This document shows positions 449 through 39,785 of a stretch of 53,120 bases of DNA, piece by piece. The stretch comes from a virus (lineage: Duplodnaviria > Caudoviricetes). Within the stretch, counting starts at the first letter, position 1. Each line of letters begins with the position of its first letter. The stretch spans positions 1 through 53,120 of the IMG/VR virus record IMGVR_UViG_3300035633_000512. One strand, given 5' to 3'. Made by a program: the position numbers and the translations under genes. The notes under the pieces were generated by a model, which saw only the letters and a program-made list of their open reading frames with translations, did not search any database and had not been told where the DNA came from.

Positions 449-751
449 TCATGGGACTGGGTTCCAGTGCTTCCGAACCAGCTCCAGGTGTCGAGGGCTC
501 AGTGCCCGAAACAGTTCGGCGTGCTCAGCCACCTTCTCGCGACTGACATAGTCTGGGAAAAGGTACGTCCAAGGGCCTGAGCCTCCGGTCCAGTTCTCCG
601 CGGTTCCCGTCAAGGTGTAGCCGTCGCCGTAGCTCAGCGCCGAAATGAGCGCCACCATGGCCTGCGCCTCTTCGAGAGTGCAGTCGTCCTCGACGAAGTA
701 GAGGTGGTGGTCGGAGTACATCTCTCCGTTGTCGATCACGAACAGGGTCAT
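449..751 (-). CDS. Hypothetical protein (~100 aa, MTLFVIDNGEMYSDHH...)
   Basis: 3' part of ORF 449..1114; ATG 751 overlaps the TGA of the RecD gene (ATGA coupling). Confidence 0.7.
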   Translation of the reverse strand: MTLFVIDNGEMYSDHHLYFVEDDCTLEEAQAMVALISALSYGDGYTLTGTAENWTGGSGPWTYLFPDYVSREKVAEHAELFRALSPRHLELVRKHWNPVP

Positions 752-2121
752 GAGTTCAAGTCCTTCGCGCAAGGCGCGGCCTGCAGGCAGGGCTGCAAGG
801 TTGTGCGACGCTCGACGCCGCGGGTGTTGTTGGCCGCCTTGCCGAGCATCTTCTGCTCGCCCAGCATGACCAGAAACTTCTCGGCGCGGGTCACCGCCGT
901 ATAGAGCAGCGGGCGGGTCAGCATGAAGCTGTTGCAGCTGTGGACCGGAACCACGACGCACGGGAACTGCGAGCCCTGCGACTTGTGGACGGTCATGGCG
1001 TAGGCCAGCTCCAGGTCCTCGGCCTCGTTCTTGTTGTAGCCGACCTTGCGGTCCCCGAAGTCGACGACCACGACCGGCTTGCCCTTGCCCGAGGTCTGGG
1101 TGCCAGCAGGACACTCGACGCCCTTCCAGTTGGCCTCCAAGACCCTACCGGTCTCGCCGTTGGCCACGCCCTCACCGAGGTTGTAGTTGTTGCGGTTCGC
1201 GTGCAGGACGCGGTCCCCGACGAACAGCCGGTAGCCGCGACCCACTTTGACGCCCGCGTATGGGTTGTCGGAGTAGTTCGGGTTGAGCCGAGCCTGCAGC
1301 AGCGGGTTCAAGGTCTCGTCGCCCACGGCCTTGCCGTGCTGCGGGCAGAGCACCTGGATCTGGTCCGACGGGATGCCGCGCCGGGCGGGGACGTGGCTGG
1401 CCACGGCCTCGACGATGGCGGCCTGCAGCGTCAGCTCATCAGACTGCTCGGCGAACGCGACGTCCGACTCGCCGCCCTTGGCGTTGAGGACCGTGACGTC
1501 GAGGGACTTGCCCTCGTTGATGTCACGAGCCACGTACGGGATGCGAGACTCGCTGGCCTGTCGGAAGATGTGGGTCAGGCGCACGGACGGCACGACGCCC
1601 GACTCGATGAGGTCGAAGAGGACACGGCCGGGTCCGATGGAGGGGAGCTGGTCGACATCGCCTACGATGACGAGCCGCTGGGTCGGCTTCAGCGCCTGCA
1701 GGAGTCCCGAGAACAGCTGCACGTCGACCATGGAGGCCTCGTCCAGGATGACGGCGTCACAGGGCAGCGGGCCGCTGATCTGGTTGCCGTCCATGTCGAA
1801 CTTGGTGGGCGCGTCCGCGTTGAAGGTCCACCCATCGGGCGTCCAGCCGAGGAGACGGTGCAGCGTCATGGCCTGCTGCCCGGTCTGCTCCTTCATCCGC
1901 ATGGCGGCCTTGCCGGTCGGAGCGCACAGCTCGACGTGTAGTCCGTTGGCCTGGAACATCTGCAGGATGGCGTTGACGGTGAAGGTCTTGCCAACGCCCG
2001 GGCCGCCGGTGACGACGAGCACACGGTTGTCCGCCGCGAGCTGAACGGCCGTCGACTGATGCTCGTGCGGCGGACGCTCGGCGTCGAAGAGGTTGGCGGG
2101 GATGGTGAGCTTCGTCGTCAT
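748..2121 (-). CDS. recD2: RecD2/TraA-like SF1B helicase, C-terminal motor half
   Basis: Walker A TGGPGVGKT, CAPTGKAA, ILDEASMVD, VGDVDQLPSIGPG, LTHIFRQ, LAYAMTVHKSQGSQF, LLYTAVTRA. Start inferred at ATG 2121, 7 nt after a -10 box. Confidence 0.93.
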   Translation of the reverse strand: MTTKLTIPANLFDAERPPHEHQSTAVQLAADNRVLVVTGGPGVGKTFTVNAILQMFQANGLHVELCAPTGKAAMRMKEQTGQQAMTLHRLLGWTPDGWTFNADAPTKFDMDGNQISGPLPCDAVILDEASMVDVQLFSGLLQALKPTQRLVIVGDVDQLPSIGPGRVLFDLIESGVVPSVRLTHIFRQASESRIPYVARDINEGKSLDVTVLNAKGGESDVAFAEQSDELTLQAAIVEAVASHVPARRGIPSDQIQVLCPQHGKAVGDETLNPLLQARLNPNYSDNPYAGVKVGRGYRLFVGDRVLHANRNNYNLGEGVANGETGRVLEANWKGVECPAGTQTSGKGKPVVVVDFGDRKVGYNKNEAEDLELAYAMTVHKSQGSQFPCVVVPVHSCNSFMLTRPLLYTAVTRAEKFLVMLGEQKMLGKAANNTRGVERRTTLQPCLQAAPCAKDLNS

Positions 2122-2128
2122 CGGTGAG

Positions 2129-2157
2129 ACCATAAGACAGTTTCCGGCGCTTGTCAA
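2129..2157 (-). promoter_or_regulatory. sigma70-type promoter, probably leaderless transcript
   Basis: Minus strand TTGACA-17 nt-TATGGT-7 nt-ATG. Confidence 0.7.
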
Positions 2158-2227
2158 GAGGAAGGTGTGTCCTCCACGTCGGTGACCTCTTCCACCTCAA
2201 TGTCGCCAGGATGTGGCAACAGATAGA

Positions 2228-2259
2228 GGTGCCGGCACCGTCGGGCGGGTGCCGGCACC
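2228..2259. repeat. Two copies of the 12-bp palindrome GGTGCCGGCACC, 20-bp period
   Basis: Copies at 2228-2239 and 2248-2259; together they can also form one hairpin. Confidence 0.85.
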
Positions 2260-2287
2260 TGTCAACCCTAGCCTCGCAGCTCTTCGA

Positions 2288-2620
2288 TCACGTGACCACC
2301 TCGGTGATCTCAGCCCGGTAGAGCCCCTTGTCCGGATCCGGAGGGAAGATGTGCACGTTGCAGGGCTGCTCAGCGACTCCAGCCTCGTCGAGCAGGGGGG
2401 CCCAGCCCTTGGCCATCCACTTCGGCACGTAGCCGACCTTGGTCGGGGTGTTGTCCTCGTTGACCACGTCGACGCGGATCGCGTTCGGGTCGTAGTTATT
2501 CTGGGGCTCACGTACGAGCAGCGCGGACACTGTGCCCGTGCCGATCTCGACGAAGCGCTCTTGGTACTCTGCGCGGTTTGCGCCGGCCACGTACAGGGCC
2601 GCTTTCAGTTCGATCGTCAT
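2288..2620 (-). CDS. HIRAN domain protein
   Basis: VAGA...LVREPQNNYDPNAIRV...KVGYVPK matches the HIRAN signature. Confidence 0.85.
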   Translation of the reverse strand: MTIELKAALYVAGANRAEYQERFVEIGTGTVSALLVREPQNNYDPNAIRVDVVNEDNTPTKVGYVPKWMAKGWAPLLDEAGVAEQPCNVHIFPPDPDKGLYRAEITEVVT

Positions 2621-3618
2621 CCATCACTTTCCGCCAGCATCCCGCGGATTCGACGGCAGACGGTCTTCTCAGCCTCGTACACCTCCGAGAGGTAGATGCG
2701 GTCTTCCTCGACCACGGCACGCGGCGGAAGCACGACGCCATCGGAGACGGTCACCGGCTGCTGCAGCACGTCCAGTCCTTGACGGAGCAGGGCGTCTGAC
2801 AAGCTGACGGACTGTCGAGCCTTCTCCACCTGATAGTCAACCCCTCCCCCGAAAAGGTGACGCTCGGACGACCAGCAATCCCCACCCCGGCCGGCGGCGC
2901 GCAGAACCAGCATGGCCGCGGCGGCGAGCCGACGAGGGTCGTCCTCGGACATGCCCAGCTTGATGCGGATTGCGTCGCAATCCCTGAAGGACATATCGAT
3001 GCGGGTCATCAGGTAGAAGGGATCCGCGTGGATGATGGACCGGGCTTGCCCGCCGAGCCGGTCGATGATGCGGGCCGCCACCCGACTGGGCAGGTCCAGC
3101 TCGCGACACAGGAGCCAGGCGTCGCGCTCGCCTTCGAGCAGCTTGAAGGCCTCCGCGGCTTCGGACGCCCGCTCGGCGCTGATGCCCTCGATCTCAGCCA
3201 AGCGCTCGGGGGTGTTGTCGAGCAGGTCGAACACCTCGTCGGCCCCGCCGAACTTGGCGATGATGAGGGACGCCCGGTGCGGGCCGACATGGGGGAGCTT
3301 GCGCAGGAAGCTGTACAGCGCCCGCTCGTCACGTCGGGCGCAGAGCATGGCGTGCTTGGCCTCAACCTGCCAGCCGTACCGCTGGTGCCGGGTGGGGACG
3401 CCCTCGATGTCGAGGAGGTCGCCAGCCTGTACGGGCGCGATGTATCCGGTCACGGTGACCTTCTTGGCGTCGGACAGCCACTTCGGGAGGGGCGGCGCAC
3501 CTTCAGGCTGCACCGTGTCGAGCACGGTCTGGACGCACGCCCAGTCGTTCCCTGGCTTGGAGAACGTGACCTTCGTCACTTCGATGGTCATGAGGAGGGT
3601 CTCGGCGTTAGCGCTCAT
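2617..3618 (-). CDS. recD2: RecD2 N-terminal half (OB fold and HhH domains, no motor)
   Basis: VTVTG...HQRYGWQV, LPHVGPHRASLIIAKFG, PERLAEIEGIS, IHADPFYL...MSFRDCDAI...DDPRRLAA, IYLSEVYEAE are typical of the RecD2 N-terminal region. Confidence 0.85.
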   Translation of the reverse strand: MSANAETLLMTIEVTKVTFSKPGNDWACVQTVLDTVQPEGAPPLPKWLSDAKKVTVTGYIAPVQAGDLLDIEGVPTRHQRYGWQVEAKHAMLCARRDERALYSFLRKLPHVGPHRASLIIAKFGGADEVFDLLDNTPERLAEIEGISAERASEAAEAFKLLEGERDAWLLCRELDLPSRVAARIIDRLGGQARSIIHADPFYLMTRIDMSFRDCDAIRIKLGMSEDDPRRLAAAAMLVLRAAGRGGDCWSSERHLFGGGVDYQVEKARQSVSLSDALLRQGLDVLQQPVTVSDGVVLPPRAVVEEDRIYLSEVYEAEKTVCRRIRGMLAESDG

Positions 3619-3917: not shown

Positions 3918-6632
3918 TTCTGGGTCCGTCTCTACAGGCTGACCAGGTGGGGTGTACGTCAGCATGTATTGCCCTGCATTGGCCGAGCGATCGTGCCCGA
4001 CCGACTCGAAGTGCCACCCGAGCTGGGAGAAAACCGGCTGTCGGACGAGCGCTCGGATTCGCCCCAATAGGGCTTTGCTGGAGCGGGTTTCCTGCCAGCT
4101 GCCTGACCCCTTGGCCAGCCAGCCGACGGTGTCGTGGAGCTGGCTGACGGTGAACGGGCCGATCTCAATGGCGCGCGCCTTGAACCGAACGCGCACAGTG
4201 TGCACGAACACGGAATCCCCTTCATCTCCGCCCGGGCGCCGGGACCGGTCCTCCTTGATGACGATGGCCCGGTTCCTCAGGTTGACCAGCATCGTCATCG
4301 TCGGGTCGTCGTTCACAGCGGACGCCGAGTCCTGCTCGAAGCAGGCGTTCATCCACTCCATGAAGGTGACCCGCGCGTCGAAGTCTTCCTCGTCGACGAG
4401 CAGGTGCCCCACCGCCTCGGTGATGGCCAACATGCGCCCGAGCCAGTCGGAGTAGTCCTTCTTGGAGCCGTACAGGTGTCCACACTTCTCGTCGAGCCAG
4501 ACAATGGCCTCGCGGTACCGCGCCTCGAAGTTCGGCAGGATGTAGACGCTGAACAGCTCCAGGACCGCCGAGAGCATCGCGTCCGCCTTCTCGTCGAGCA
4601 GGTCCTCTCGCGTGGTAAAGTCCGCGCGCCCCTTCGTCGTCCAGAAGGCTGAGTCGAAGCCGAACTCGAACGTTCGCCGCAGCTCCTCGGGACGGTGCAT
4701 GCCTTCGATGGCGGTCAAGGTCAGCGAGCCGTTTGGTAGGAAAACGCGCTCTCCGGCCTCTGTGTAGTACTTGCGGATCTTGGTGGGCTTTCCGGAGGCA
4801 GGGACCAGGTAGACCTGCCCGAACCGGTAGCGGTCCTTGGACTCGGCGTTGTCCTGGATCGTGAACGGGCCGCCAGTCGACATGTCGCTGAGCAGGTTCT
4901 TCTTGTCGTCGTACTCACCGCCGCCCGAGCCCGGGCTCCCGTAGAGCACGGTGGCCCAGTCGAACGCCGCCGCCGTCTTTCCGGAGCCCTGGGTACCGTA
5001 GTGGAATTTCAGCGGGCGGTGGCGGTGCAGCGGCAGCATGCAGCAGAGGTTGAAGACCGTCGACATCAGCCGGTAGTTGGGCTCGGACCCAGTGCCGTCC
5101 GGGAGCGCCTGCCCGTCGTGCACCTCCCGCCGAAAGAGCGTCCAGCCTTCGCTCTGCAGGGCGGTCGGAACCACGTCGACCTGCTTCTTTCTGTGGTGCA
5201 TACCGCGCAAGGTGATGCCACCGGCCCCGTTGTCCTGTGCCTCGACGCGGGGCTTTCGATCGTCTCCGGCCGGCTCGACGCGGATCACCTGGGTGTGCTT
5301 GGGGTCGAAGCAGAGGTAGAGCACCTCGGTCTTCTTGTCGTAGCGTCCCCAGTGTGCCTCCGCCTTGTTCGTCCGCGGCCAGGCCTGAATCTTCGTCCGG
5401 AGCGCCTGGGTCAGCTCTTTGCCCCGAGGGCTCGACGCGGTGAAGATTTCGACGTGCTGCACGAACCAGTTCTGATAGTCGTCCTCGGCCGTGTCGACGA
5501 CGTAGGGGTGCCCGTTCAGCACGAAGACAGTCTCGTTAGAGCCGGCGAAGAAGTAGAAGTCTGCAGCCTGGTCGATGAGGTAGCGCAAGACGACCTCCGC
5601 CTTGTAGCTCACCTCGACGTCGGAGCGCTGCACGTAGCCGCCAGTCGACTCGGAAATGGCGTGGTAGAGCCCGTACAGGTGCTCGCGCAGCGTGTCGGTC
5701 GGTCCGAACTCGGGCACCGGACGTGCTGGAGCACGGGGGCGGTTTTCGCGCTTCTGTCCGACCTCCTCGGTGACATCCTTGACGAAGTCCAGGATCTCCT
5801 TCAGACCCCCTCCGTTGGCTCGAATGGCGCAGTTAGGTCGGTTCCAGAGCGTGTCGACGATCTCGTCCTCGGTGAAGTTCTCCTTGGCGGCGACCATCAG
5901 CTCGACGGTCTTGCGGTCGAAGTTCTCCTCGGTCGCAGGGATGGGGTGGCCCTTCTCATCCACCCCCAGGTCCACGCGGCCCCGCGACTGGAACATCTTC
6001 GTCAGCTTGCTGCCGACGACGCTCAGCTTCTTCTCGACACGCAGCGGAAGTGGGCGATACAGCTGTCGTCGCGTCGGCTGCGAGAGAGCCCTTCCTCTGT
6101 GCTTGACGCAGGTCCCCAGAGACAACGGGATGCCCGCAGCAGGAAGCCAGAGCGCCTCATCGAAGCCCGCCCGACCGAAGGTGGACTGCAGGTTTGCCTT
6201 CAGGACGTTCAGCCCGTTGTCGAGTTCAGCCTGCGCAGGCCACGGGAACGGCTGGACCGCGATCGACACGTAGCCGTAGGCCGTCCCCTGCGGGGCGGGC
6301 ACCATCCACACATAGGTGGTTTGCGCCTCCTTCGCGAGCACCTCGGCCAGCCTTCGGGTGTCGACGGTCGGGTCGAGGTCATCCTCGTAGTGGAACTGGT
6401 ACACGGCGGCACCGAAAAGGTGAGGCTGCACCTTCTTGATCCACGGGCTGGTCTGGTTCGTGACGTGTTCGCTGGCAAAGATGTGCGGGCTCAGCACGGC
6501 GTCGCCGTCGCTCTTCGCGGCTTGGGCTGCGGCTTTCACGTCGTCGAAGTATCCGAGACCATTCGCAGTTCGTAGTTCTAGCACACCCACCTCGGGGAAT
6601 CCGAGGTAGGTCATCAGGTCAAGCACGGTCAT
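3870..6632 (-). CDS. Primase/helicase-like replication protein with a C-terminal P-loop NTPase
   Basis: Walker A YGTQGSGKT, Walker B-like FTIQDN, RKYYT motif; N-terminal ELR...GYFDD segment. Primase catalytic residues are not clearly recognisable. Start inferred at ATG 6632. Confidence 0.6.
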   Translation of the reverse strand: MTVLDLMTYLGFPEVGVLELRTANGLGYFDDVKAAAQAAKSDGDAVLSPHIFASEHVTNQTSPWIKKVQPHLFGAAVYQFHYEDDLDPTVDTRRLAEVLAKEAQTTYVWMVPAPQGTAYGYVSIAVQPFPWPAQAELDNGLNVLKANLQSTFGRAGFDEALWLPAAGIPLSLGTCVKHRGRALSQPTRRQLYRPLPLRVEKKLSVVGSKLTKMFQSRGRVDLGVDEKGHPIPATEENFDRKTVELMVAAKENFTEDEIVDTLWNRPNCAIRANGGGLKEILDFVKDVTEEVGQKRENRPRAPARPVPEFGPTDTLREHLYGLYHAISESTGGYVQRSDVEVSYKAEVVLRYLIDQAADFYFFAGSNETVFVLNGHPYVVDTAEDDYQNWFVQHVEIFTASSPRGKELTQALRTKIQAWPRTNKAEAHWGRYDKKTEVLYLCFDPKHTQVIRVEPAGDDRKPRVEAQDNGAGGITLRGMHHRKKQVDVVPTALQSEGWTLFRREVHDGQALPDGTGSEPNYRLMSTVFNLCCMLPLHRHRPLKFHYGTQGSGKTAAAFDWATVLYGSPGSGGGEYDDKKNLLSDMSTGGPFTIQDNAESKDRYRFGQVYLVPASGKPTKIRKYYTEAGERVFLPNGSLTLTAIEGMHRPEELRRTFEFGFDSAFWTTKGRADFTTREDLLDEKADAMLSAVLELFSVYILPNFEARYREAIVWLDEKCGHLYGSKKDYSDWLGRMLAITEAVGHLLVDEEDFDARVTFMEWMNACFEQDSASAVNDDPTMTMLVNLRNRAIVIKEDRSRRPGGDEGDSVFVHTVRVRFKARAIEIGPFTVSQLHDTVGWLAKGSGSWQETRSSKALLGRIRALVRQPVFSQLGWHFESVGHDRSANAGQYMLTYTPPGQPVETDPEDSGDDSGDVIAKINE

Positions 6633-6648: not shown

Positions 6649-6664
6649 TGCAATCCTGGTGCCG
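6649..6664 (-). promoter_or_regulatory. sigma54-type -24/-12 promoter for the primase/helicase gene
   Basis: Minus strand CGGCACCaggaTTGCA (GG-N10-GC), 17 nt before ATG 6632. Confidence 0.6.
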
Positions 6665-6695
6665 CTCCGAGCTGCCACACGGACAATTCCCGGCA

Positions 6696-6711
6696 TGGCA
6701 CGTCGCATGCA
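6696..6711 (+). promoter_or_regulatory. sigma54-type -24/-12 promoter
   Basis: TGGCACGtcgcATGCA; an in-frame GTG at 6725 lies 14 nt after the GC. Confidence 0.65.
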
Positions 6712-6724
6712 GGAAAACGGGCAC

Positions 6725-9472
6725 GTGCTGACGCCCCGAGGTCAACGTGACGTGCTGGTCCGCTGCACGCCCGGGCAAGCCATGTCCCTCGTGCACGAGG
6801 TCCCGGGCGTGGTCTACGGGCAGAACGGCGTCCTCACCACCTGGGACACCGTTCCGCTCGTCTGCGAGCGGATTGGCAAGGACGTGCCAAGCCTGCCAGA
6901 AGTGCCCTTGGCGGAGCTGCCAGGCGTCGCGCAGTACCAAGAGCTGGTCGCCGGGCTCGAAGAGCCGCCCCGCACTTACCAAGAGGAGGACGCCGCGTGG
7001 CTGGCCAACCGGCCTTACGCCTTCCTCTGTAACCCGATGCGCTGCCTCGATGGCGACACCGAGGTGTTTGTCAACCGTGCAGGTCGAGGCTTCCGGATGA
7101 CCCTGCGCGAGCTGCACCGCAAGTTCCACGGCGGAGAGACTGCCGGGCGCCGTTGGGACCTGACCATCCCGACCCAGGTTGCGTGCTTCGACGAGGAACG
7201 CTCGATCGTCTCGAATCATCTCGTCCAGACGCACCTCGCAGGCGTCAAAGAGGGCTACGAGGTCGTGGTGGGTGACCGCCGCCTGACGGCCTCTGCCGAC
7301 CACAAGTTCCGCACACCTGACGGCTACGTGGCGCTCCGCGACCTGAAGCCGGGCGACCTGGTGCTGATGCGCGAGCGCGCACCTGCCGAGCGCCAAACAG
7401 GACCGCGGAAGAATCCCTATCGTGTCGTCTCGGTCAAGGGACATCCGAACGCTCGCGTGTACGACGTGGAACGGCAAAACCGACCCAATGAGCGCGTCTG
7501 GCACGTGCTGAAGCATCGTCTGGTCTACGAAGCCGAAGTCCTCAACGGGATGTCCGTGAAAGACTTTAGCGCCCGCGTGCGCAGAGGCGCCCATATCGGG
7601 TTGGTCTGGCTCGACCCAGCCCTGCACATCCACCACAAGGACGAAGACCCGACGAACAATGCCGCGTCGAACCTGGAGGCGTTGACGCCAGCCGAACACA
7701 ATCGACAGCACGACTCCTCGCACCACGTACTGTTTGACGCCGTGCCACGGCCCATTGAGTCGATCACGCCGGTTGGCGGAGTCGAGATGTTCGACCTGAC
7801 TCTGGAGTCGCCTTTGAACAACTACGTAGCCAACGGCTTCGTGGTCCACAACTCGGGCAAGACGCTGACCACGCTGCTCGGGGCGATCCTCGCCGGGCAC
7901 AAGCGCATCCTGGTCCTCTGCCCCGCCATCTCCCGCTTCGTTTGGGGCGACGAGGTCTACAAGTGGTTGGGTCAAGAGTCGCTCATCCTCTCAGGACTCT
8001 CATTGTCGCGGGCCCTCCAGTACTGCGGCACGTGCAAGCTCTCCGGTCGGCTGCCCGACGGCTCCCGCTGCCCCAGCTGCAAGCAGCGAAACGGCAGCAC
8101 GTACGGGTACCACATCCACGAAGTTCGCACCACCGAGCCGCCGAAGGTCGTTGACGTCAACGCGGGCGGGATCCTCTGGCGGTGCCGCAAGCACCACGAA
8201 GTCACCTCGCCGTCCAACAAGCCACTGCGCTGCCCGAAGTGCCGCGAGGAGCTGCGCGACATCCTGCAGAACGTCGAGGTCATCGTCGCCAACTACGACA
8301 TCCTCTCGGGCAAGGGCTACGCGAACAAGCGGGGCCGCGTCGAAAAGCGCGATGACCTCCCGGGCTGGGGGCAAGCGTTGTCGCTGCTCGACTTCGACCT
8401 AGCGATCATCGACGAGTCCCACACCCTCCGCGCTTTCGACACGACCGAGAAGAAGCGCGGCAAGATGATGTACGACCGCGTCCGGGACATCGTTGCGCGG
8501 GTGCCAAACGTCTGGATGGTCACCGGAACCCCGATTTTCGGCATGGTCCGCGATCTATACGGGCAGCTCGAAGTCGCCACCCACGGCCTCGTCGGGGACG
8601 GCCGCATGTGGACCGAGCGCTACTGTGCGGGTCACGTCGGCCCCTACGGATGGGAGGCGACCGGGCGCTCGAACGAAGAGGAGCTGCAGGCTCGCCTGAA
8701 GCCCATCCTCGTGTCTCGGCCGCGCTCCGAGATCCTGGAGTACATGCCGCCGAAGCTCCGTCGCGTCGTCTACATCGACAACGACAAGCCGGTGCGCCGC
8801 AAGTCCACCGGTTCGGCCGCGGGCACCGTGGCCAAGCTCATCGACGCCATCGCGCCGCTGAAGCACGACGTCATCATCGACAACGTGCTCTCGGAGATGA
8901 ACGAAGGTCTGAAGACCTACGTCCTGACCTTCCGCCCGAAGCACGCCGAGCGGATCGCGAAGCTGCTGCAGAAGAAGATGAACAGCCGCAACTGGCGGCA
9001 GCAGATGAATAAGAACAAGGCGGAGGTCTTCTTGGGGCAGACTGCCAAAGGCGTCGACCCAAAGCGCCGCCGGGAGCTGGCCAAGGCGTTCTGCGACCAC
9101 AAAGGCGCCGGCGTGTTCATCGCGACGATCCGCTCGATGCCCGGCTCAGTGTCTCTGAAGGGCGTCGCAACCGTCCACATGGCGGACTTCGACACTTCGC
9201 CCTCATCCATGGAGCAGGCCGAGGACCGAGGCTACGAGCCAGGGGTGCCCGGGTACTCCATCACCCACTACGTGGTGAAGAACTCGATCGACGACGACCT
9301 GGCCCAGGTTGTGCTCCCGAAGTTCGAGACCAAAGACCGAATGCTGAAGGACGAGAACGCGCAAAACGTACTCGAAGCCTTCCGCTCAGAAGAGGAGACG
9401 TGCGACGAGGTCATGGCGCGCCACACCGCACACTTGAACACTAGCGCCGACGAAGGCGACGATTGGATGTAA
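6725..9472 (+). CDS. SNF2/SF2 helicase with an intein and Zn-ribbon insertions
   Basis: After intein removal, motif I reads NPMR-SGKT; also ILVLCPA, IIDESH, VTGTP, MEQAEDR. CxxC pairs lie between motifs Ia and II. Start inferred from the promoter. Confidence 0.88.
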   Translation: MLTPRGQRDVLVRCTPGQAMSLVHEVPGVVYGQNGVLTTWDTVPLVCERIGKDVPSLPEVPLAELPGVAQYQELVAGLEEPPRTYQEEDAAWLANRPYAFLCNPMRCLDGDTEVFVNRAGRGFRMTLRELHRKFHGGETAGRRWDLTIPTQVACFDEERSIVSNHLVQTHLAGVKEGYEVVVGDRRLTASADHKFRTPDGYVALRDLKPGDLVLMRERAPAERQTGPRKNPYRVVSVKGHPNARVYDVERQNRPNERVWHVLKHRLVYEAEVLNGMSVKDFSARVRRGAHIGLVWLDPALHIHHKDEDPTNNAASNLEALTPAEHNRQHDSSHHVLFDAVPRPIESITPVGGVEMFDLTLESPLNNYVANGFVVHNSGKTLTTLLGAILAGHKRILVLCPAISRFVWGDEVYKWLGQESLILSGLSLSRALQYCGTCKLSGRLPDGSRCPSCKQRNGSTYGYHIHEVRTTEPPKVVDVNAGGILWRCRKHHEVTSPSNKPLRCPKCREELRDILQNVEVIVANYDILSGKGYANKRGRVEKRDDLPGWGQALSLLDFDLAIIDESHTLRAFDTTEKKRGKMMYDRVRDIVARVPNVWMVTGTPIFGMVRDLYGQLEVATHGLVGDGRMWTERYCAGHVGPYGWEATGRSNEEELQARLKPILVSRPRSEILEYMPPKLRRVVYIDNDKPVRRKSTGSAAGTVAKLIDAIAPLKHDVIIDNVLSEMNEGLKTYVLTFRPKHAERIAKLLQKKMNSRNWRQQMNKNKAEVFLGQTAKGVDPKRRRELAKAFCDHKGAGVFIATIRSMPGSVSLKGVATVHMADFDTSPSSMEQAEDRGYEPGVPGYSITHYVVKNSIDDDLAQVVLPKFETKDRMLKDENAQNVLEAFRSEEETCDEVMARHTAHLNTSADEGDDWM
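7043..7852 (+). mobile_element. Intein (270 aa) with an HNH homing endonuclease, inserted in helicase motif I
   Basis: Begins CLDGDTEV, block B TASADHKF, ends YVANGFVVHN followed by Ser; HNH HIHHKDEDPTNNAASNL...HNRQH. Confidence 0.93.
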
Positions 9473-10703: not shown

Positions 10704-11543
10704 TTGGCTGACATCAATTCATTCATTCTGTACGGGCACGCGGGGGTCGGTAAGACGACCATCGCAGCCCGTGTCATGCCGGACGCCCTGTGGGTCGTCA
10801 CCCGGGAATCCAACCTGGGTGGCTACAACACCTGGGTCCGGGGAGAGGGCGCAGCGGAAGCCGCGTCCTTGGGTCTGCGCCAGATCATGTCTCGCAAGGA
10901 GTGCGAGAAGAGAGGCGTCGACCCGAACACCTGCAACACGGCCGTGGTGCAGGTCCCGCGGATGCTTCCGCAGACTGACAACAAGGGCAACGTGTCCATT
11001 CAAAAGACGGACGTCCGCGAGTTCATTCGAACCATCGTGGGCGAGTACGTCGTGAAGGCACAGAAGGGCGAGACCAAAGCCCGCGGCATCGTCTTCGACG
11101 AGTTGTCGATTCTTGCCAAGTGGGTCTACGACATGATCAAGGAGCGTGAGCGAAACGGCTTCGAGGTCATCGCGCAGATCAAGGAGTGGGTCGGAGAAAT
11201 GTGCGAGATCAGCACGATGTCCGGCCTTCCGATGGCCTTCTTGTGTCACTCCAAGGACACCACCTTCTGGGAGGACGGCCCCAAGAAGGGCAAGGTCAAG
11301 TACAAGGGCGGACCAGCTATGCCTGTTGGCACAATGATTGCTGATGTCTGCGCGTTGCCAGACGCGGTCCTCCAAGTGGACCTCGAAGAGACTGGCATGG
11401 ACTCGTCGACACGAGTCATCCGAACCGAAGCGCATCCCCGTTGGGAGCGCAAATGTCGAGTGTGGGGTGTCGAACCCACGATCGAACCTGACCTTCGACC
11501 GTTGCTGACGAAGGCTGGGTGGAACTTCCAAACAGCAGCGTAA
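10704..11543 (+). CDS. Sak4-like AAA ATPase / single-strand annealing protein
   Basis: LYGHAGVGKTT, IVFDELS, FLCHSK; lies between the exonuclease and SSB-like genes; AGGAG RBS and TTG start. Confidence 0.7.
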   Translation: MADINSFILYGHAGVGKTTIAARVMPDALWVVTRESNLGGYNTWVRGEGAAEAASLGLRQIMSRKECEKRGVDPNTCNTAVVQVPRMLPQTDNKGNVSIQKTDVREFIRTIVGEYVVKAQKGETKARGIVFDELSILAKWVYDMIKERERNGFEVIAQIKEWVGEMCEISTMSGLPMAFLCHSKDTTFWEDGPKKGKVKYKGGPAMPVGTMIADVCALPDAVLQVDLEETGMDSSTRVIRTEAHPRWERKCRVWGVEPTIEPDLRPLLTKAGWNFQTAA

Positions 11544-11558
11544 AAAGGAAAAAACACG

Positions 11559-12149
11559 ATGAGTGATTCGCAGAACATCAACTTCGGAGACTTCGGGGGC
11601 TACACCCCGTACGACGGCGACGGCGCCGCAGCGCTTCTTCCCTTCGACGGATACGTGTCCGTCAAGGTGAAGCGATTCAAGACCGTCATGACGAAGGGCG
11701 ACAGCCCCAAGCCGATGGTCAAGCTCACCCTGAAGGTGGCCGACCAGGACCTGCCGCAGCACACGATCTACGCGCAGGCCTTCACGGGCGGCAAGGACCG
11801 AAACGAAGAGAACCTGAACCGGCAGTTCGCCGACGTTCTCGTTTCCTTCGGTCTCTTCACGGCGGAGAGCCTGCAGGCCGAGGCCTCGAAGGGCACCGTC
11901 AAGACCGTCGACGAGCTGGTCAACGAGATCATCACGCGTGACCTCACTGGCTTCGTCGAGATCCAGGCGGACACCTACCAGGGCAAGACGTCCTCGAAGG
12001 TGAACAACTTCGTGACCCGCGCCGTGTTCGAGCGTGAGGTGAACGGTGGAACCCACCGTAAGCCCCACGGCCTGAGCGCGGGCGGTGCCTCGCAGTCGAA
12101 CGGAGCTTCCCAGCAGGCCGCCAGCGGCATGCTCAGCGGGGTCATCTGA
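11559..12149 (+). CDS. Phage ssDNA-binding protein-like (DUF669-type)
   Basis: GY-x-VKV...KPMVKLTLKV...YQGKTSSKVNNF followed by a low-complexity tail; position in the Sak4 module. Confidence 0.6.
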   Translation: MSDSQNINFGDFGGYTPYDGDGAAALLPFDGYVSVKVKRFKTVMTKGDSPKPMVKLTLKVADQDLPQHTIYAQAFTGGKDRNEENLNRQFADVLVSFGLFTAESLQAEASKGTVKTVDELVNEIITRDLTGFVEIQADTYQGKTSSKVNNFVTRAVFEREVNGGTHRKPHGLSAGGASQSNGASQQAASGMLSGVI

Positions 12150-12213
12150 CCCACGCTCCACGACTTCGTGCCTTCGGCACTCGCCGCGGGGCGCGTTGTC
12201 AGTCCGGAGTACC

Positions 12214-12253
12214 GCCCACCGTACTTCCGCGCACGCGCGGAAGTACGGTGGGC
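12214..12253. terminator. Perfect 19-bp inverted repeat; terminator or processing hairpin
   Basis: GCCCACCGTACTTCCGCGC-AC-GCGCGGAAGTACGGTGGGC followed by TCTT. Confidence 0.65.
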
Positions 12254-12257
12254 TCTT

Positions 12258-12345
12258 GCCCGAGCGGGTGGCGTGGGAAGCCACTGAAGTGCCAAGTCAC
12301 GGTGCCATCTTCCCAGACGAGCAGGTTCGAATCCTGCCTCGGGCT
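12258..12345 (+). ncRNA. tRNA-like element (acceptor stem and T arm intact, non-canonical centre)
   Basis: GCCCGAG/CTCGGGC 7-bp acceptor stem; GCAGG-TTCGAAT-CCTGC T arm; no canonical 5-bp/7-nt anticodon arm. Confidence 0.6.
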
Positions 12346-12350
12346 AATCC

Positions 12351-15212
12351 ATGACCAACCTCCACACCTTCCTAGCCGAGCACAAAGCGGCCATGGACCG
12401 TGGGGCGAAGTGCACGGAGTGTCCCCTCTTCAAGAAGCACGTCGAAGACGGCCAGGGCCGCGGCCCCGTCATGGGCGAGGTCACCCGCAACAGCAAGCTG
12501 GTGGTCATCGGCGAGGCGCCCGGCAACCGTGAGGTCGAAACCGGGCGGCCCTTCATGGGCGCCTCGGGTCGCATCCTGAACGGGCAGCTCATCAAGGGCG
12601 GGCTCGACCGAGAGCAAAAGGGCGACGTCTCGGTTACCAACACGATCCTCTGTCAGCCTCCCGACGACTTCGAGGCGTACGAGGACAAGCTCCGGGCCAA
12701 GGCCAAGACCGCGGGCAAGGAAGTGGTACTCCCGACCCTGTGCTGTGCACCTCGCCTCGAACGGGACATCCGTGAAGCCAACGCCCCGGTCGAGTACGCT
12801 GTCGGACGCCAAGCTCTCGCCGCTTTGGCCCGCCATCACGGCGTCCCCTACGGCAAGGAAAAGAAGAAGCGCGAGCGCGGTGACATCTCAATTGCGAACC
12901 TCCGCAAGCAGCACGGCGCCCCTATCCCTGTCCGTCCCATCGGGCATCCCGAAGGGGCCAAGACCCTCATCGCCTCCTACCATCCCGCCTACGCCATGCG
13001 CGGCGCGAAGGCCTGGATGCCGGTCATCAAGACGGTCATCAAGCGAGCCGCCCTCATCGCCGGTCGCGGAGGCGCGATCGACTGGCAAAAGCCGAAGTAC
13101 AACCTGGCGCCGACCATCGACGAAATCGAGGAGTTCGCCCGAGAAGCTTTCGATACCGACCGCGTTGTCATGGTTGACATCGAGACCGGCCCGTCACGTC
13201 CCGGAGCGGACGACGGCGGCTCGATTCAGACCTGCGCGCTTCGCACCGTCGGCTGGGGCTTCCGTCGTGAGACAGGCGAAGAGGTCATCATGGTCGTGCC
13301 CTACCGGGACATGGCCGGCGACCCGCTTTGGTCTGGGGAGCAGTGCGAGCGCGTCGACGCCGCCATCCGGCTGGTGATGGACAAGTGCAAGCTCGCTGGG
13401 CAGAACTTCAGCTTCGACTCCGCGGTGCTCTTGCGTCTCGGGCTGATGACGGACCGCAAGAAGCGATGGGCCGACATCATGTTGGCCCACCACGACACGG
13501 ACTCCAACGACCTTCCTCACGACCTTGGGTTCATTATCTCGGAGCACTTCGAGGCGCCGCACCACAAGGCGGACGTCGACCACAAGTCGGTCAACAACGT
13601 CGACTACGGCATGCTCTGCGAGTACAATGGTGATGACGTCCTGACCCAGCTCCGCTGCCTGGAAGCCGTGCTGACCCGCATCTCGCAGCTGGGGACGGTC
13701 GAGCAGTACAAAACCGACACGAAGATCGCACCTGTCGTCCGCGACATGGGCGACCTGGGACTGGTCATCGACGAGCACGAGCGTCAGCGCCTCGCGGGCG
13801 TCCTGACCGAGCGCATCGACTACTTCCGCTCGAAGTTCCGCTTCGAGGTCGCCATGATGTTCGTGAGCCCTCAGGAGGCCGCGCGTGTCGAGGCTCGCCT
13901 GAAGCAGATGGCAGCGGACTGGCGCAACCGTCCCGACTCGGAGGTGGCCGCAGCCTGGACCCGCGCCTACCAGAACTACGCCTTGGACAAGGGCTACGGT
14001 GAGTTCAACCCGAACTCGGTCTACCAGCTCCGAGACCTCCTCTTCGACAAGCTCAACCTGACGCCGATCCTGAACACGGACGGCTACGAGTTCGACGACG
14101 AGGCGGACGACGACCCGTCCACGGGCCAAGCGGCCATCCTGAAGCTCCTGGAAAAGTACGACCACATCCAGGGCTTCTGCGACGCTCTGCTGGAGTACCG
14201 CGCCTACAGCAAGCTCTACGGCACCTACGTCGCTGACAAGAAGGGCCGCATCAAGGACGTCGACTGGACGAAGTGGGGACTGCCGCCGAACGCCGCGAAG
14301 CGGATCCTCCACACGGTCTACAAGGTCCACGTCATCCCGTCGGGACGTCTGTCGACCCAGCCTGCGATCCAGAACTGGCCGGCTGTCGGCAAGGCCTCGA
14401 TGCGCACCATGGTCGTCGCACCTGACGGGCACTGCATCGTTGGTGCCGACTACGACCAGCTCGAACTCCGCATCTACGCGGTGGTCGCCCAGGACCAGCT
14501 GCTGCTCCAGGCCTTCTCGGAGAAGGACAAGCACGGCGCACCCATCGACCCACACTCCCTGAACGCCGCGGCGCTCCTCGCCGACACCGAGGGCGAAATC
14601 TGGGACCAGTACTACAAGATCAAGTACGACATGACCGACAAGGAGCGGAAGTACTGGAGGACCGTAGCAAAACGCTTCTGCTACCTGGAGACCTACGGCG
14701 GCGAAGAAGACAAGCTGTTCTCGACCATGGCCGCGTCCCGCAACAAGGCGACGGGCAAGCGAGACTTCCCGAATCTGCAGCTGAAGGACGTCGAGACCTG
14801 GCACAAGCGCTGGCACAAGCTCCATCCCGAGACCAAGAAGTGGCAGGACAACTGCAAGTACATCGCCTACAACCGGGGTCACGTCCGCGTCGGGACGCTG
14901 GACTACAGAGCGCGTTTCTGGCCGGGCGGCATCGACAAGAAGAACGCGCCGCCCAACCACACAATCCAGGGCTTCGCGGCGAGCATCGCCAACAAGGCGC
15001 TCATCGACCTGAACGAAGCCATCCCCTACCGAGCGTGGTCGCCGGTCTCGGGCATCAACCTGCAGATCCACGACTATATCGGCGGCTACGTCCCGCGTGA
15101 CCGAGCCTGGGAAGCCAAGGGGATCATCGAGGAGTGCCTGAGCTACGAGTTCAAGGGAATGAAGTTCACATGCACCGCCGAATCGTCGTACCGGTGGAGC
15201 GACCAGGGCTAG
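12351..15212 (+). CDS. polA: Family A DNA polymerase with an N-terminal family-4 uracil-DNA glycosylase domain and a 3'-5' exonuclease
   Basis: UDG: CTECPL, IGEAPG, GRPFMGASG, VTNTILCQPP, YHPAY. Exo: VDIET, QNFSFD, YNGDD. Pol: SGRLS, ADYDQLELR, RTVAKRFCYLETYG, QIHD. Confidence 0.93.
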   Translation: MTNLHTFLAEHKAAMDRGAKCTECPLFKKHVEDGQGRGPVMGEVTRNSKLVVIGEAPGNREVETGRPFMGASGRILNGQLIKGGLDREQKGDVSVTNTILCQPPDDFEAYEDKLRAKAKTAGKEVVLPTLCCAPRLERDIREANAPVEYAVGRQALAALARHHGVPYGKEKKKRERGDISIANLRKQHGAPIPVRPIGHPEGAKTLIASYHPAYAMRGAKAWMPVIKTVIKRAALIAGRGGAIDWQKPKYNLAPTIDEIEEFAREAFDTDRVVMVDIETGPSRPGADDGGSIQTCALRTVGWGFRRETGEEVIMVVPYRDMAGDPLWSGEQCERVDAAIRLVMDKCKLAGQNFSFDSAVLLRLGLMTDRKKRWADIMLAHHDTDSNDLPHDLGFIISEHFEAPHHKADVDHKSVNNVDYGMLCEYNGDDVLTQLRCLEAVLTRISQLGTVEQYKTDTKIAPVVRDMGDLGLVIDEHERQRLAGVLTERIDYFRSKFRFEVAMMFVSPQEAARVEARLKQMAADWRNRPDSEVAAAWTRAYQNYALDKGYGEFNPNSVYQLRDLLFDKLNLTPILNTDGYEFDDEADDDPSTGQAAILKLLEKYDHIQGFCDALLEYRAYSKLYGTYVADKKGRIKDVDWTKWGLPPNAAKRILHTVYKVHVIPSGRLSTQPAIQNWPAVGKASMRTMVVAPDGHCIVGADYDQLELRIYAVVAQDQLLLQAFSEKDKHGAPIDPHSLNAAALLADTEGEIWDQYYKIKYDMTDKERKYWRTVAKRFCYLETYGGEEDKLFSTMAASRNKATGKRDFPNLQLKDVETWHKRWHKLHPETKKWQDNCKYIAYNRGHVRVGTLDYRARFWPGGIDKKNAPPNHTIQGFAASIANKALIDLNEAIPYRAWSPVSGINLQIHDYIGGYVPRDRAWEAKGIIEECLSYEFKGMKFTCTAESSYRWSDQG

Positions 15213-16455: not shown

Positions 16456-16769
16456 TCTCGACCGCCGTCGCACTCCTGCTCTGCTACTTCGTGGTGGAGT
16501 TCGTCATGTTCTCGCCGGCTCGCACGTTCCAGGGCATCGTGGTGCGCTCGAACGTCCACGCGGCCTGCATCTTCATCGTACTCTTCCTGGAGGCCGGCGC
16601 CGCGCTCTGGCACGCGATCCCGGCCACCTTGCTGGTCGGGGTGCTCTACGTCTTCGTCGAGCATGATGTCATGCTCTTTGCAGCGTCCCGCGAAGTGAAC
16701 CGAGGACTCATTGGCATGACGCAGTTTTGCCACGTCCTTCCCCTTGCCATTCTCTCGCATCTCGTGTGA
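16452..16769 (+). CDS. Multi-pass membrane protein
   Basis: MISTAVALLLCYFVVEF...; several hydrophobic segments; ATGA coupling. Confidence 0.7.
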   Translation: MISTAVALLLCYFVVEFVMFSPARTFQGIVVRSNVHAACIFIVLFLEAGAALWHAIPATLLVGVLYVFVEHDVMLFAASREVNRGLIGMTQFCHVLPLAILSHLV

Positions 16770-16780
16770 GGTCCAACGCC

Positions 16781-18667
16781 ATGACAAAGTCCCCTACCGC
16801 CGTTCGCTTGATCACAGAGCCCACCATCACCGTCCTCGCCGAGATGTCGCTCAACCGCGACGGCATGAAGGACTTGATGGCCTGGACCGCGGACTACGTC
16901 CCCGACGCCCTGCCTGAGAACACCCAAGTGTCGCCCTATGTGCTCTTCCCTCACGGCGGCCTCTCGGAAGGGCACGCGCGCGACTACACCGGCAACGAGC
17001 TGCTCGTCGAGTTGGCCGGACGCAAGTGCCTTGACGGCGCTACCGAAGTGCTCACGAAGGCAGGCTGGGTCAGCTTCCCCAACCTGCAGCAGGGTGTCGA
17101 AGTGGCGACGTACAATACCACGTCCGGGCTCATCGAGTTCCAGACACCTACAGACTACATCAAGAAGGTGCACCACGGCACAGTCTACACAATCGAGTCT
17201 AGGGCACTCTCGCTGCGCGCGACGGGTGACCACGAACTGTGGAGGGAGAAAGGTGGTGTGTGGGCTTTTCAGGAAGCGCAGGAGCTGCTTGGGAAGCGGT
17301 ACAGGGTGCAAAGAGCAGCTCTGTATGCGGGCCAGCCGGATGCGCCTGTTTCGGAGCTGTGGAGTGTTCCGCAGGGCGCAGCGAACGCGTGGGCGACCTT
17401 CTTGGGCTTCTATTTGTCAGAGGGGACACTCGTGGACGGCAAGCGATACGGAACTGGGAGTCGAGTGACTCTCTATCAGCGCCCCGAGACTGCAGGCCCC
17501 ATCCTGTCGGCGGTCGCAGCGTTGGGATTCGAGCCTTACATTAAAACGGACCCGCGAAACGGTGTCTTGCACATCACCGTCAACAATACAGCTCTTGCTG
17601 AAGCTCTCTCGCCGCTGGGTCACGGCGCCGCTGAAAAAGCGCTGCCCATGGAGGTTTTCGACTGGCCGATGGGCCGGCGCGCAATGCTCCTTGACGCTCT
17701 GATGGCCGGGGATGGCACTTTGCAGGGCAAGCAGCGAGTCTACTCGACAGTGTCCCCGAAACTCGCCGAGGGTGTACAGCGCCTCATCTTGCTCTCGGGA
17801 AGACCCAGCTCGATCTCAACGGTTTTTCCCAAGGATCGTCCAGCCTCGTTTCGCTCGAATTTGCCTGTTCATCGCGTGCGAGAAGGTACACAGACCTTCG
17901 TGACTGTGAACAACAAGACGCGGCACGACGCGACAGAGGAAGCAGCGGGGGAGGCCTTCTGGTGCGTAACGGTGCCGAATCGAACTCTGCTTGTCCGGCG
18001 GAGAGGAAAGACAATGATCGTCTCCAACTGCTACAATTCCTTCGGGAAGAAGGCCGGCCGCAAGACGAACGGGTCCTACATCGCGAACCTGCTCGGCGGC
18101 CCTGGCAAGATCCCTCACGCTTCGGTGCTCTATCACGCCAAGATGACCTTCTTCTTCGGCGGCCTGTCGCGGCGTGTGAGCCACGAACTCATCCGACACT
18201 ACGTCGGTGCGGACCGGACCGAGGAAGGCTGCCCGAGCCAGGAGTCGACGCGCTATACCCACCACCCGGGGCACTTCACGGTGCACCCACGCCTCCTCGA
18301 CAACGACACGGACATGCCGCTGGCGGCTGTCGAGTACTTTCGGGAGGCCATGCAGTCGGCCTACGACTCCTACCTGAACTTCATCAACGACGAGACCGAG
18401 GCACACTATCAAGAACACGGCGAAGCCCCGAAGGGCATGGACCGCAAGCGCATCTACGAGTGCGCGGCGCAATTTCTCCCAGGCGCAGCCGCGACGTCGT
18501 TCATCTGGACGACCAATCCGATGGCCCTCCAGAAGATGTTCGACGAGCGATGCGACAACGCCTCCGACCTAGAGATCCAGCGCTTCGCCAAGAAGCTCCG
18601 TTCCCTCTGCTACGACCGCTGGCCCAACCTCTTCCGCGCGTCCAACCCGGAGGTGCCCCTTGTCTGA
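16781..18667 (+). CDS. thyX: Flavin-dependent thymidylate synthase ThyX with an intein
   Basis: ELAGRK|CYNSF, HASVLYHA, GLSRRVSHELIRH, SQESTRY, LPGAAAT, RCDNASDLEIQ; GAGG RBS before ATG 16781. Confidence 0.9.
   Translation: MTKSPTAVRLITEPTITVLAEMSLNRDGMKDLMAWTADYVPDALPENTQVSPYVLFPHGGLSEGHARDYTGNELLVELAGRKCLDGATEVLTKAGWVSFPNLQQGVEVATYNTTSGLIEFQTPTDYIKKVHHGTVYTIESRALSLRATGDHELWREKGGVWAFQEAQELLGKRYRVQRAALYAGQPDAPVSELWSVPQGAANAWATFLGFYLSEGTLVDGKRYGTGSRVTLYQRPETAGPILSAVAALGFEPYIKTDPRNGVLHITVNNTALAEALSPLGHGAAEKALPMEVFDWPMGRRAMLLDALMAGDGTLQGKQRVYSTVSPKLAEGVQRLILLSGRPSSISTVFPKDRPASFRSNLPVHRVREGTQTFVTVNNKTRHDATEEAAGEAFWCVTVPNRTLLVRRRGKTMIVSNCYNSFGKKAGRKTNGSYIANLLGGPGKIPHASVLYHAKMTFFFGGLSRRVSHELIRHYVGADRTEEGCPSQESTRYTHHPGHFTVHPRLLDNDTDMPLAAVEYFREAMQSAYDSYLNFINDETEAHYQEHGEAPKGMDRKRIYECAAQFLPGAAATSFIWTTNPMALQKMFDERCDNASDLEIQRFAKKLRSLCYDRWPNLFRASNPEVPLV
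17027..18028 (+). mobile_element. Intein (334 aa) with a LAGLIDADG homing endonuclease
   Basis: Begins CLDGATEV, block B ATGDH, motifs FLGFYLSEG and LDALMAGDG, ends IVSN followed by Cys; more A/T-ending codons than the flanks. Confidence 0.92.
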
Positions 18668-23526: not shown

Positions 23527-23793
23527 TCAGTTCAAAGATGCCAACTGTGAGCTGGCCCATAGTTCTTGGGCCACGTCTTGGAGCACGCGGGGCTCGCCCA
23601 GCTCGTAGCCGAACCACCGCTTCCACACCCCCACCACGATGCAGTGCACGTCGTCGAAGCACTCCGGTGGCGTGTTCAGCAGCAAGAGTGCGATCTCGTT
23701 CACTTCGGGGTCGTATTCGTCCATCGGTGCGCCTAGCGCCAAGAGTCGCTCAGGGTCATGCTCGTTGATGACACGTCGGACAAGGGATCGCAT
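23527..23793 (-). CDS. DUF1871/YugE-like helical protein
   Basis: VINEHDPERLL...APMDEYDPEV...VWKRWFG resembles the WDP...DEY..E family. Confidence 0.6.
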   Translation of the reverse strand: MRSLVRRVINEHDPERLLALGAPMDEYDPEVNEIALLLLNTPPECFDDVHCIVVGVWKRWFGYELGEPRVLQDVAQELWASSQLASLN

Positions 23794-23808
23794 GGCAGGA
23801 GTCTTGCA
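23793..23808 (+). promoter_or_regulatory. sigma54-type -24/-12 promoter
   Basis: TGGCAGGagtcTTGCA; ATG 23822 lies 14 nt after the GC. Confidence 0.65.
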
Positions 23809-23821
23809 TCGTCGTCTCGCC

Positions 23822-39784: not shown

Positions 39785-39785
39785 C

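Follow-up and report, generated by a model that had tools for sequence, protein, structure and literature searches.

What is an RNA that looks like a tRNA, and is not recognised as one, doing five nucleotides (nt) ahead of the start codon of a phage DNA polymerase? The question is raised by the IMG/VR virus record IMGVR_UViG_3300035633_000512 (Duplodnaviria; Caudoviricetes; 64% G+C; CheckV completeness 32%), whose 53,120 nt we analysed in full and refer to below as the window. A gap of 201 nt separates an open reading frame (ORF) of 196 amino acids (aa) from polA, and holds an 88-nt element, at 12258-12345 on the + strand, that folds as a five-arm, type-II-like cloverleaf. The reading that we favour, with a probability of roughly one in three, is that of a tRNA-derived RNA, structurally intact and non-decoding, whose role would be that of a cis-acting processing signal, in the manner of a 't-element'. 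The parts of the element and of its surroundings are as follows.

11559-12149, + strand: upstream ORF, 196 aa, with high G+C at third codon positions; it follows a Sak4-like gene at 10704-11543.
12214-12253, + strand: hairpin in which 12214-12231 and 12236-12253 form 18 perfect pairs around the loop CACG; only TCTT follows.
12258-12264, + strand: 5' strand of the acceptor stem, GCCCGAG, with 7/7 Watson-Crick pairs to 12338-12344.
The 2 nt between acceptor stem and D arm, + strand: C8 and G9, position 8 being C and not U.
12267-12285, + strand: D arm, 6 base pairs (bp), GGTGGC/GCCACT (12267-12272 and 12280-12285), with a loop GTGGGAA that contains GG.
The 3 nt from the D arm to the anticodon-like stem, + strand: linker GAA.
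12289-12305, + strand: anticodon-like hairpin of 5 bp (GTGCC 12289-12293, GGTGC 12301-12305; two G-U pairs) with the 7-nt loop AAGTCAC.
12306-12320, + strand: variable-arm-like stretch of 15 nt, in which a short imperfect stem is possible around the loop TCCC; it aligns to the variable arm of tRNA-Sec.
12321-12337, + strand: T arm, GCAGG/TTCGAAT/CCTGC in sequence, with the motif GGTTCRANYCC at 12324-12334.
12338-12345, + strand: 3' strand of the acceptor stem, CTCGGGC, and discriminator T (12345); AAT follows, with no encoded CCA.
12346-12350, + strand: spacer AATCC, 5 nt, between the element and the polA ATG.
12351-15212, + strand: polA, a UDG-PolA fusion of 953 aa, with a family-4 UDG-like domain and a family A DNA polymerase.

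An earlier note on this DNA, made from its letters, had described a non-canonical tRNA-like RNA abutting polA, in which a perfect acceptor stem is stacked on a textbook T arm that closes 5 nt ahead of an ATG lacking a Shine-Dalgarno (SD) sequence, and all of this is borne out: the helices of the element are intact (7/7, 6/6, 5/5 and 5/5 pairs for the acceptor stem, D arm, anticodon-like hairpin and T arm), and no SD-like motif of the GGAG/GAGG/AGGA type occurs in the 30 nt before the polA ATG. The two mutually exclusive stems that the note had seen in the middle of the element exist as well, namely the D stem and a longer pairing of TGGGAAG (12274-12280) with CTTCCCA (12309-12315). Two statements required correction. 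The hairpin that precedes the element by 4 nt is present and perfect, but has 18 bp and not 19, the would-be nineteenth pair closing a 2-nt loop; and the view that there is no standard anticodon arm holds for the loop, AAGUCAC, which has A32 and A33 and no U33, and for the 3-nt linker, but not for the arm itself, as an in-register 5-bp hairpin with a 7-nt loop is found at 12289-12305. As in a tRNA, the 7-bp acceptor stem is thus stacked on a T stem of 5 bp that closes on a T-psi-C loop, and a D arm whose loop contains GG begins 2 nt past the acceptor stem. The element departs from a tRNA in the spacing between D and anticodon stems (3 nt in place of a single one), in a loop with A33 and not U33, and in its failure to reach detector thresholds.

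Regarding the detectors, ARAGORN at default settings reports no tRNA or transfer-messenger RNA (tmRNA) gene in the window, and Rfam gives no match at gathering thresholds, so that neither ARAGORN nor Infernal/Rfam scores the element as an ordinary tRNA. We attribute the rejection to the 3 nt between D and anticodon stems, to C8, and to the AAGUCAC loop without U33. The best permissive Rfam match in 12100-12420 is tRNA-Sec (RF01852) at 12258-12344, with 21.3 bits against a cut-off of 47 (E = 0.062). The two have in common a D stem of 6 bp, an extended variable region and T arms that are alike, but besides the low score the acceptor stem of the element has 7 bp and not 8 (the eighth pair would be C-C), there is no in-register UCA anticodon, and we rejected this assignment. 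The earlier note had also thought of a tmRNA or a Y RNA, and neither likeness was found: ARAGORN restricted to tmRNA (-m) with a lowered threshold returned nothing, neither tmRNA nor Y RNA/YrlA was matched by Rfam at E <= 10 in 12100-12420, and the element is only 88 nt long. Y RNA/YrlA moreover has its ends at the stem opposite the tRNA-like domain, whereas the free ends of the element lie at the acceptor stem.

When its threshold is lowered, ARAGORN returns an 88-nt 'tRNA-Gly(gcc)' whose long variable region is unpaired, and when introns are allowed at the default threshold it returns, as its sole call in the window, a 76-nt tRNA-Gly(GCC) with a 12-nt 'intron' at 12291-12302. This model requires a connector of 3 nt at positions 8-9, an anticodon stem that is either mismatched or of 4 bp, and a variable loop of 7-8 nt, and we read the 'intron' as an artefact of freely chosen boundaries. 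Splicing of the archaeal type was also discarded: no bulge-helix-bulge could be seen by eye, and the terminators of the relatives are bacterial-type.

Is the cloverleaf itself a matter of chance? With the acceptor and T stems fixed, suboptimal folds were enumerated, and the five-arm cloverleaf (-35.0 kcal/mol) lies 0.7 kcal/mol above the minimum free energy (MFE) of -35.7, while folds with the long TGGGAAG/CTTCCCA stem reach -33.7 kcal/mol. A core with an in-register D arm of at least 4 bp and a GG loop, plus a 5-bp/7-nt hairpin, was obtained in 35 of 20,000 dinucleotide shuffles of the 56-nt core, and the same arrangement is present in 160 of the 106,128 natural 56-mers of the window. The cloverleaf arrangement of the core is not, therefore, a by-product of G+C content. 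In contrast, the folding energy of the 88 nt is ordinary (z = -1.22; 24/200 shuffles fold at least as well). The longer stretch 12150-12400 (251 nt) is strongly structured (z = -4.32, none of 200 shuffles as stable), mostly owing to the 18-bp hairpin, which is formed in the MFE structure and also appears as a self-complementary match at 12214-12253.

When both strands of the 53,120 nt were scanned for a T-loop motif on a 5-bp stem with an acceptor of at least 6/7 pairs, the element was the only site. The bare motif GGTTCRANYCC is less telling, as it occurs twice where 0.68 occurrences are expected, and at least two copies are found in 15/100 shuffles. The second copy (24360-24370, within the T-arm-like hairpin AGTGG/TTCAAGT/CCACT at 24355-24375, + strand) lies inside a 614-aa ORF (23639-25483), has no acceptor stem, and was put down to chance. 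An alternative 74-nt register of the element, with the 5' strand of the acceptor at 12271 and 6/7 pairs of which two are G-U, has no D arm and was likewise rejected.

The start of polA can be placed at 12351, given that an in-frame TAA at 12345-12347 excludes any start further upstream and that the N-terminal peptide following this ATG is kept in relatives. An SD-like 4-mer is found at -20 to -8 in 17 of 32 ORF starts of the window, a crude and uncurated set. No sigma-70-like promoter was found in 11400-12700, and the 18-bp hairpin, which has no T run, was not called a terminator.

With regard to relatives of this phage, blastn against GenBank phages gave no match, and single-protein searches for the PolA locus in IMG/VR and in JGI metagenomes gave no relative. 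Using alignment A1, IMG/VR yielded 80 loci, the best of them with 38% and 36% PolA identity, and using the N-terminal alignment A2, JGI metagenomes yielded 71, none of them close (30-48% identity, and one fragment of 31 residues at 61%). PolA proteins that are 62-85% identical to that of the window (P0002-P0011) are known from Logan/ENA assemblies only. At the DNA level the window was compared with KX853510 (Virus Rctr197k, GenBank; PolA 38.6%) and with the IMG/VR loci L005 (38%) and L055 (36%). In L005, as in L003, a homologous upstream ORF is followed by a hairpin with a T run and then, 12-35 nt on, by polA. By its position the 18-bp hairpin of the window is the counterpart of this terminator, and it has lost the T run.

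A trace of the element itself was sought in PolA proteins whose gene calls run past the conserved start. Among the 55 PolA hits scanned at their N-termini, with a regular expression for T-loop translations in three frames, two responded, P0012 and P0013. The gene call of P0012, whose PolA is 59% identical, extends upstream of the conserved start through TSRFESC, which is the frame-2 translation of 12317-12337 of the window, that is, the T arm with its 5' flank (7/7 residues; E = 0.004 for a single comparison), and which ends 7 codons before the Met aligned with the other PolA starts. Around it, at some 85 nt from each other, stand the residues GPF and TAP, whose codons could form a 7-bp acceptor stem different from that of the window; position 8 would then be T, and the spacer would be of about 4 nt if an in-frame Val codon is the start. 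These features come from a degenerate back-translation by hand with no statistical control, and we estimate the probability of such compatibility by chance at about 0.1-0.3. Outside the T arm the back-translation has no credible alignment with the window, and the loop motif GTCAC could not be placed in it. P0013 (54%) has SEFESR in its upstream-extended call, which gave no BLASTP alignment and may be true coding sequence, and we take it as a hint only. A search with residues 1-52 of P0012 recovered only P0012, and one for shorter PolA fragments recovered a single protein with no upstream extension. At least the T arm seems to have been kept next to polA across substantial divergence.

That the element is tRNA-derived is clear. 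The 24 nt of its T arm and acceptor strand recur identically in 11 stretches of representative genomes from mixed phyla, ten of which lie under tRNAs: tRNA-Arg(CCT) in five Acidimicrobiia and one Nanoarchaeota metagenome-assembled genome, tRNA-Arg(TCG) in one, tRNA-Leu(TAA) in two and tRNA-Asn in one; the eleventh (L095) has no called tRNA over it. The same 24-mer is present in one viral contig (L004), in a tRNA of an unrelated tRNA array. Extended by the discriminator T, the resulting 25-mer has no match in the representative genomes of 185,579 species, and the middle 56 nt of the element bear no likeness to the tRNAs matched by the 24-mer, which speaks against recent copying from a host tRNA and, less clearly, against an attP-type fragment. 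Unlike a fragment, the element has the two strands of its acceptor stem, and none of the 20 proteins scanned, a part of the ORFs of the window, was recognised as an integrase. An 18-mer of the D arm occurs in no viral contig, and the 21-mer whose translation P0012 shares occurs in nine, none of them related to this phage.

One of the unrelated contigs deserves a description of its own. In the IMG/VR phage contig L168, of 32% G+C, positions 5384-5449 (the same in L169) hold a tRNA-like element of about 66 nt with an 8-bp acceptor stem, a D arm and the 21-nt T-arm stretch of the window, in which a mini-hairpin of 4 bp and 3 nt replaces the anticodon arm. It receives no ARAGORN call and lies about 30 nt ahead of an 84-aa ORF whose first position is 5478. 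Annotation may understate how often non-decoding tRNA-like elements precede phage genes. L170 (around 12530-12640) and L174 (around 280-390) share a near-identical stretch that ends in the same T arm with no ARAGORN tRNA, and which may be a tRNA-like or tmRNA-like 3' domain.

How could such an element act? RNase P and RNase Z recognise the minihelix of acceptor stem and T arm together with the elbow, and not the anticodon. In the element it is the acceptor stem, the T arm and the GG-loop D arm that are perfect, and the departures from a tRNA are confined to features of decoding (A32 and A33, the 3-nt linker, C8), which suggests that the fold, and not the anticodon, has been under selection. 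We infer that one transcript covers the upstream gene, the 18-bp hairpin, the element and polA, because there is no room for a promoter, none having been found, and because the hairpin is not followed by a T run as its counterparts in L003 and L005 are. RNase P of the host is predicted to cut at 12257/12258, which would leave the upstream message ending in a protective hairpin, and the host tRNA 3' endonuclease (RNase Z or its equivalent for precursors with no encoded CCA) is predicted to cut at 12345/12346. The polA message would thereby be released with a leader of 5 nt and be translated as a leaderless or near-leaderless mRNA, which would explain why polA has no SD sequence. The element is tightly packed, with 4 nt between it and the hairpin on one side and 5 nt between it and the ATG on the other; this packing, the lack of an encoded CCA and the recurrence of the T arm upstream of polA in P0012 are all consistent with this scheme. 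Among the three kinds of role that the earlier note had entertained, the RNase P/Z signal is the best fit to the placement, to the missing CCA and to a conserved minihelix around an unconserved middle, while the cleavages would be a prediction from these features.

Generalised, the scheme leads to a more tentative proposal: a lineage of large, high-G+C phages may use a non-decoding tRNA-like element as transcript punctuation, to be excised by host RNase P and RNase Z from the transcript of the replication module, so that a hairpin would cap the upstream message (probably for a single-strand DNA-binding protein) and a near-leaderless polA mRNA would follow. The excised RNA could have a second role as a tRNA mimic.

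Several observations weigh against a processing signal. The three relatives compared at the DNA level, at 36-39% PolA identity, have no tRNA-like element before polA under any of three ARAGORN settings, and the element is an addition in the lineage of the window. In L003 and L005 polA has no obvious SD sequence either (in L055 it may have one), and therefore expression of polA across the wider group does not depend on the element; the missing SD sequence is not unique to polA in the window either, since 10 of the 32 crude ORF starts, polA included, have no SD-like motif. A tRNA of any kind is found in one of 151 distant UDG-PolA loci, and there it is not adjacent to polA. Conservation of the arrangement depends on one gene call, that of P0012. 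A pure signal would need neither the anticodon-like hairpin nor the variable arm that have been retained, and a leader of 5 nt is not strictly leaderless. Finally, no RNA sequencing run is listed as holding the region. One DNA run is listed (word share 0.06), and its contigs, of 34-226 nt and mostly less than 90% alike, do not span the element and so speak neither for nor against it.

Could the element simply be inert, a former phage tRNA gene that has lost decoding and acquired no role, next to polA through genome compaction only? Pseudo-tRNAs are common in phage genomes, standard detectors reject the element, its folding energy is unexceptional, more distant relatives do not have it, and there is no other tRNA in the 53-kb window. 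A remnant would not, in contrast, be expected to have kept every helix intact around an in-register cloverleaf core that is rare by chance, nor to show a T arm again before polA at 59% PolA identity, as unconstrained intergenic DNA should not stay recognisable over such a distance. The decaying remnant that the earlier note had set against its own proposal is at odds with both these facts, and we regard inertness as unlikely, if with a real chance of being true.

Decidedly less probable is a tRNA mimic acting in trans, in which the excised RNA would be a decoy, a sponge or a ligand, for instance for a host anticodon nuclease, and the position beside polA would be incidental. The completeness of the fold, which includes an anticodon-like hairpin with a 7-nt loop, is in keeping with such a function, as is the existence in unrelated phage contigs of non-canonical tRNA-like elements that ARAGORN does not call (L168 and L169); positions 34-38 of the loop, GUCAC, match what we take to be the loop of bacterial tRNA-Asp. 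The motif of this loop cannot, however, be placed by hand back-translation in the element of P0012, whose middle does not align with that of the window. Rfam offers no family at E <= 10 beyond the weak match to tRNA-Sec, no defence or counter-defence gene was identified beside the element, and the tight spacing to the ATG is left unexplained. The mimic or decoy of the earlier note has thus received no specific support.

That the element is an unusual but working tRNA is improbable. It could be read as type-II-like with the anticodon GUC in spite of A33, or as tRNA-Gly(GCC) with an insertion of 12 nt in the loop that is removed or tolerated. The ARAGORN call obtained when introns are allowed, in which the loop after removal would be UUGCCAU, speaks for this, together with a cloverleaf within 0.7 kcal/mol of the MFE and with U73, G1-C72 and C2-G71, which presumably fit bacterial glycine identity. 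We know of no machinery in bacteria for tRNA introns of 12 nt. With intron boundaries free, a 4-bp stem is easily had by chance, and the intron model needs an irregular connector, stem and variable loop and shows no bulge-helix-bulge by eye; the cloverleaf, for its part, has no U33 and 3 nt in place of nucleotide 26, and its Rfam score is far under both tRNA cut-offs.

Least probable of all is a switch or translational operator, in which alternative folds of the core (the D arm or the 7-bp TGGGAAG/CTTCCCA stem) or a bound protein would gate the polA start: the two stems cannot form together, several folds fall in a range of 2 kcal/mol and the ATG is 5 nt from a stable helix, but near-isoenergetic alternatives, on which alone the switch of the earlier note was built and which are common in G+C-rich RNA, are expected for any RNA of 65% G+C, the acceptor stem, which is the helix beside the ATG, is unchanged in the alternative folds, no ligand-binding family was matched in Rfam, and comparative support is absent.

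The genes around the element are those of a replication module: parts of a RecD2-like helicase, an intein-bearing SNF2-type helicase, a PD-(D/E)XK exonuclease, a Sak4-like annealing protein, the 196-aa ORF, the UDG-PolA fusion, an intein-bearing ThyX, a UvrD-like helicase and a class II ribonucleotide reductase, to which the start of a head module is added (terminase, portal, protease and major head protein). The domains of polA are recognised by Pfam (UDG, 9.8e-19; DNA_pol_A, 9.4e-36), and its PHROG is DNA polymerase. The 196-aa ORF has no sequence match in Pfam, PHROG or the PDB. Its look-alikes in the ESM Atlas are phage clusters, some with DUF669 (features score 0.93-0.95; structure TM 0.50-0.54), and positional homologues sit before polA in L003 and L005; a single-strand DNA-binding protein is possible, the ESM Atlas likeness being a lead only. 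Directly past its stop codon, at 12168-12180 (+ strand), lies a small GUGC-(C)UUCG-GCAC hairpin with a sub-threshold Rfam match to Acido-Lenti-1 (15.4 bits against 37).

Other observations concern the rest of the window. The SNF2-type helicase (6659-9472, + strand) has intein splicing and HNH domains, and ThyX (16727-18667, + strand) a LAGLIDADG domain. Intein-type domains are also found, at differing sites, in several relatives of PolA (including P0013, P0014, P0025, P0026 and P0029), and P0004 has a long PolA insertion with no intein-type Pfam call. RecD2-like domains extend over two ORFs within 748-3618 (- strand), with OB/HHH at 2617-3618, the helicase core at 748-2157 and a 110-aa ORF (2288-2620) between them, which may represent a split gene or a gene with an insertion. 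Between terminase and portal, 39672-44834 (+ strand) encodes a protein of 1720 aa with PF13563 (2'-5' RNA ligase / 2H-phosphoesterase-type) at residues 1230-1333 and a phosphoheptose-isomerase-like stretch; it may be an enzyme carried in the virion.

If the processing model is true, this phage relies on the tRNA-maturation enzymes of its host to fix how much one replication gene yields relative to another, through a tRNA-shaped signal that gave up decoding. This would be a counterpart, in a bacterial virus, of mitochondrial punctuation and t-elements, and a further post-transcriptional route to leaderless mRNAs, and annotators should then not dismiss 'failed' tRNA calls beside start codons. 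The finding would be an ordinary one if the element were no more than a remnant.

How does the element compare with what is known? tRNA-like processing signals are familiar, as are odd or pseudo tRNAs in phages. The element shares acceptor, T and D arms with ordinary phage tRNA genes and pseudo-tRNAs, and differs from them in standing alone rather than in a tRNA cluster; it also differs from ordinary tRNAs in lacking U33, in the 3-nt linker between D and anticodon stems, in a middle 56 nt unlike theirs, and in failing thresholds. tRNA-processing enzymes define the ends of RNAs that are not tRNAs in the tRNA punctuation of animal mitochondria, at the 3' end of MALAT1, where mascRNA is formed, and in the RNase P processing of the precursor of the C4 RNA of phages P1 and P7; these belong to other organisms and settings, and to our knowledge none of these has a tRNA-like element directly before the start of a phage DNA polymerase. 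A limited search of open-access text found no report of such punctuation in a bacteriophage.

Punctuation of this kind is established in organelles and has been shown in an archaeon. The t-elements of plant mitochondria, with a conserved GGTTCRANYCC arm, mark 5' and 3' ends of mRNAs made by RNase Z and RNase P, and in rps4 an end at +2 leaves the mRNA essentially leaderless (PMC1920247). Like the element, they have a non-canonical cloverleaf with the T arm GGTTCRANYCC, adjoin a protein gene and lie within a longer transcript, which for the element is suggested by the lack of a promoter match; in contrast, they are organellar and have ends mapped by experiment, whereas the element belongs to a tailed phage, is known here from sequence and has kept more of the cloverleaf, with five arms (PMC1920247). 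The tRNA-like elements of Haloferax are cut by RNase P and tRNase Z (PMC4946936), and resemble the element in that tRNA-processing enzymes could cut both borders precisely and release the flanking RNA. They form, however, an engineered release cassette in an archaeon, while the relatives of this phage carry bacterial-type terminators of a hairpin and a T run (PMC4946936 for the cassette).

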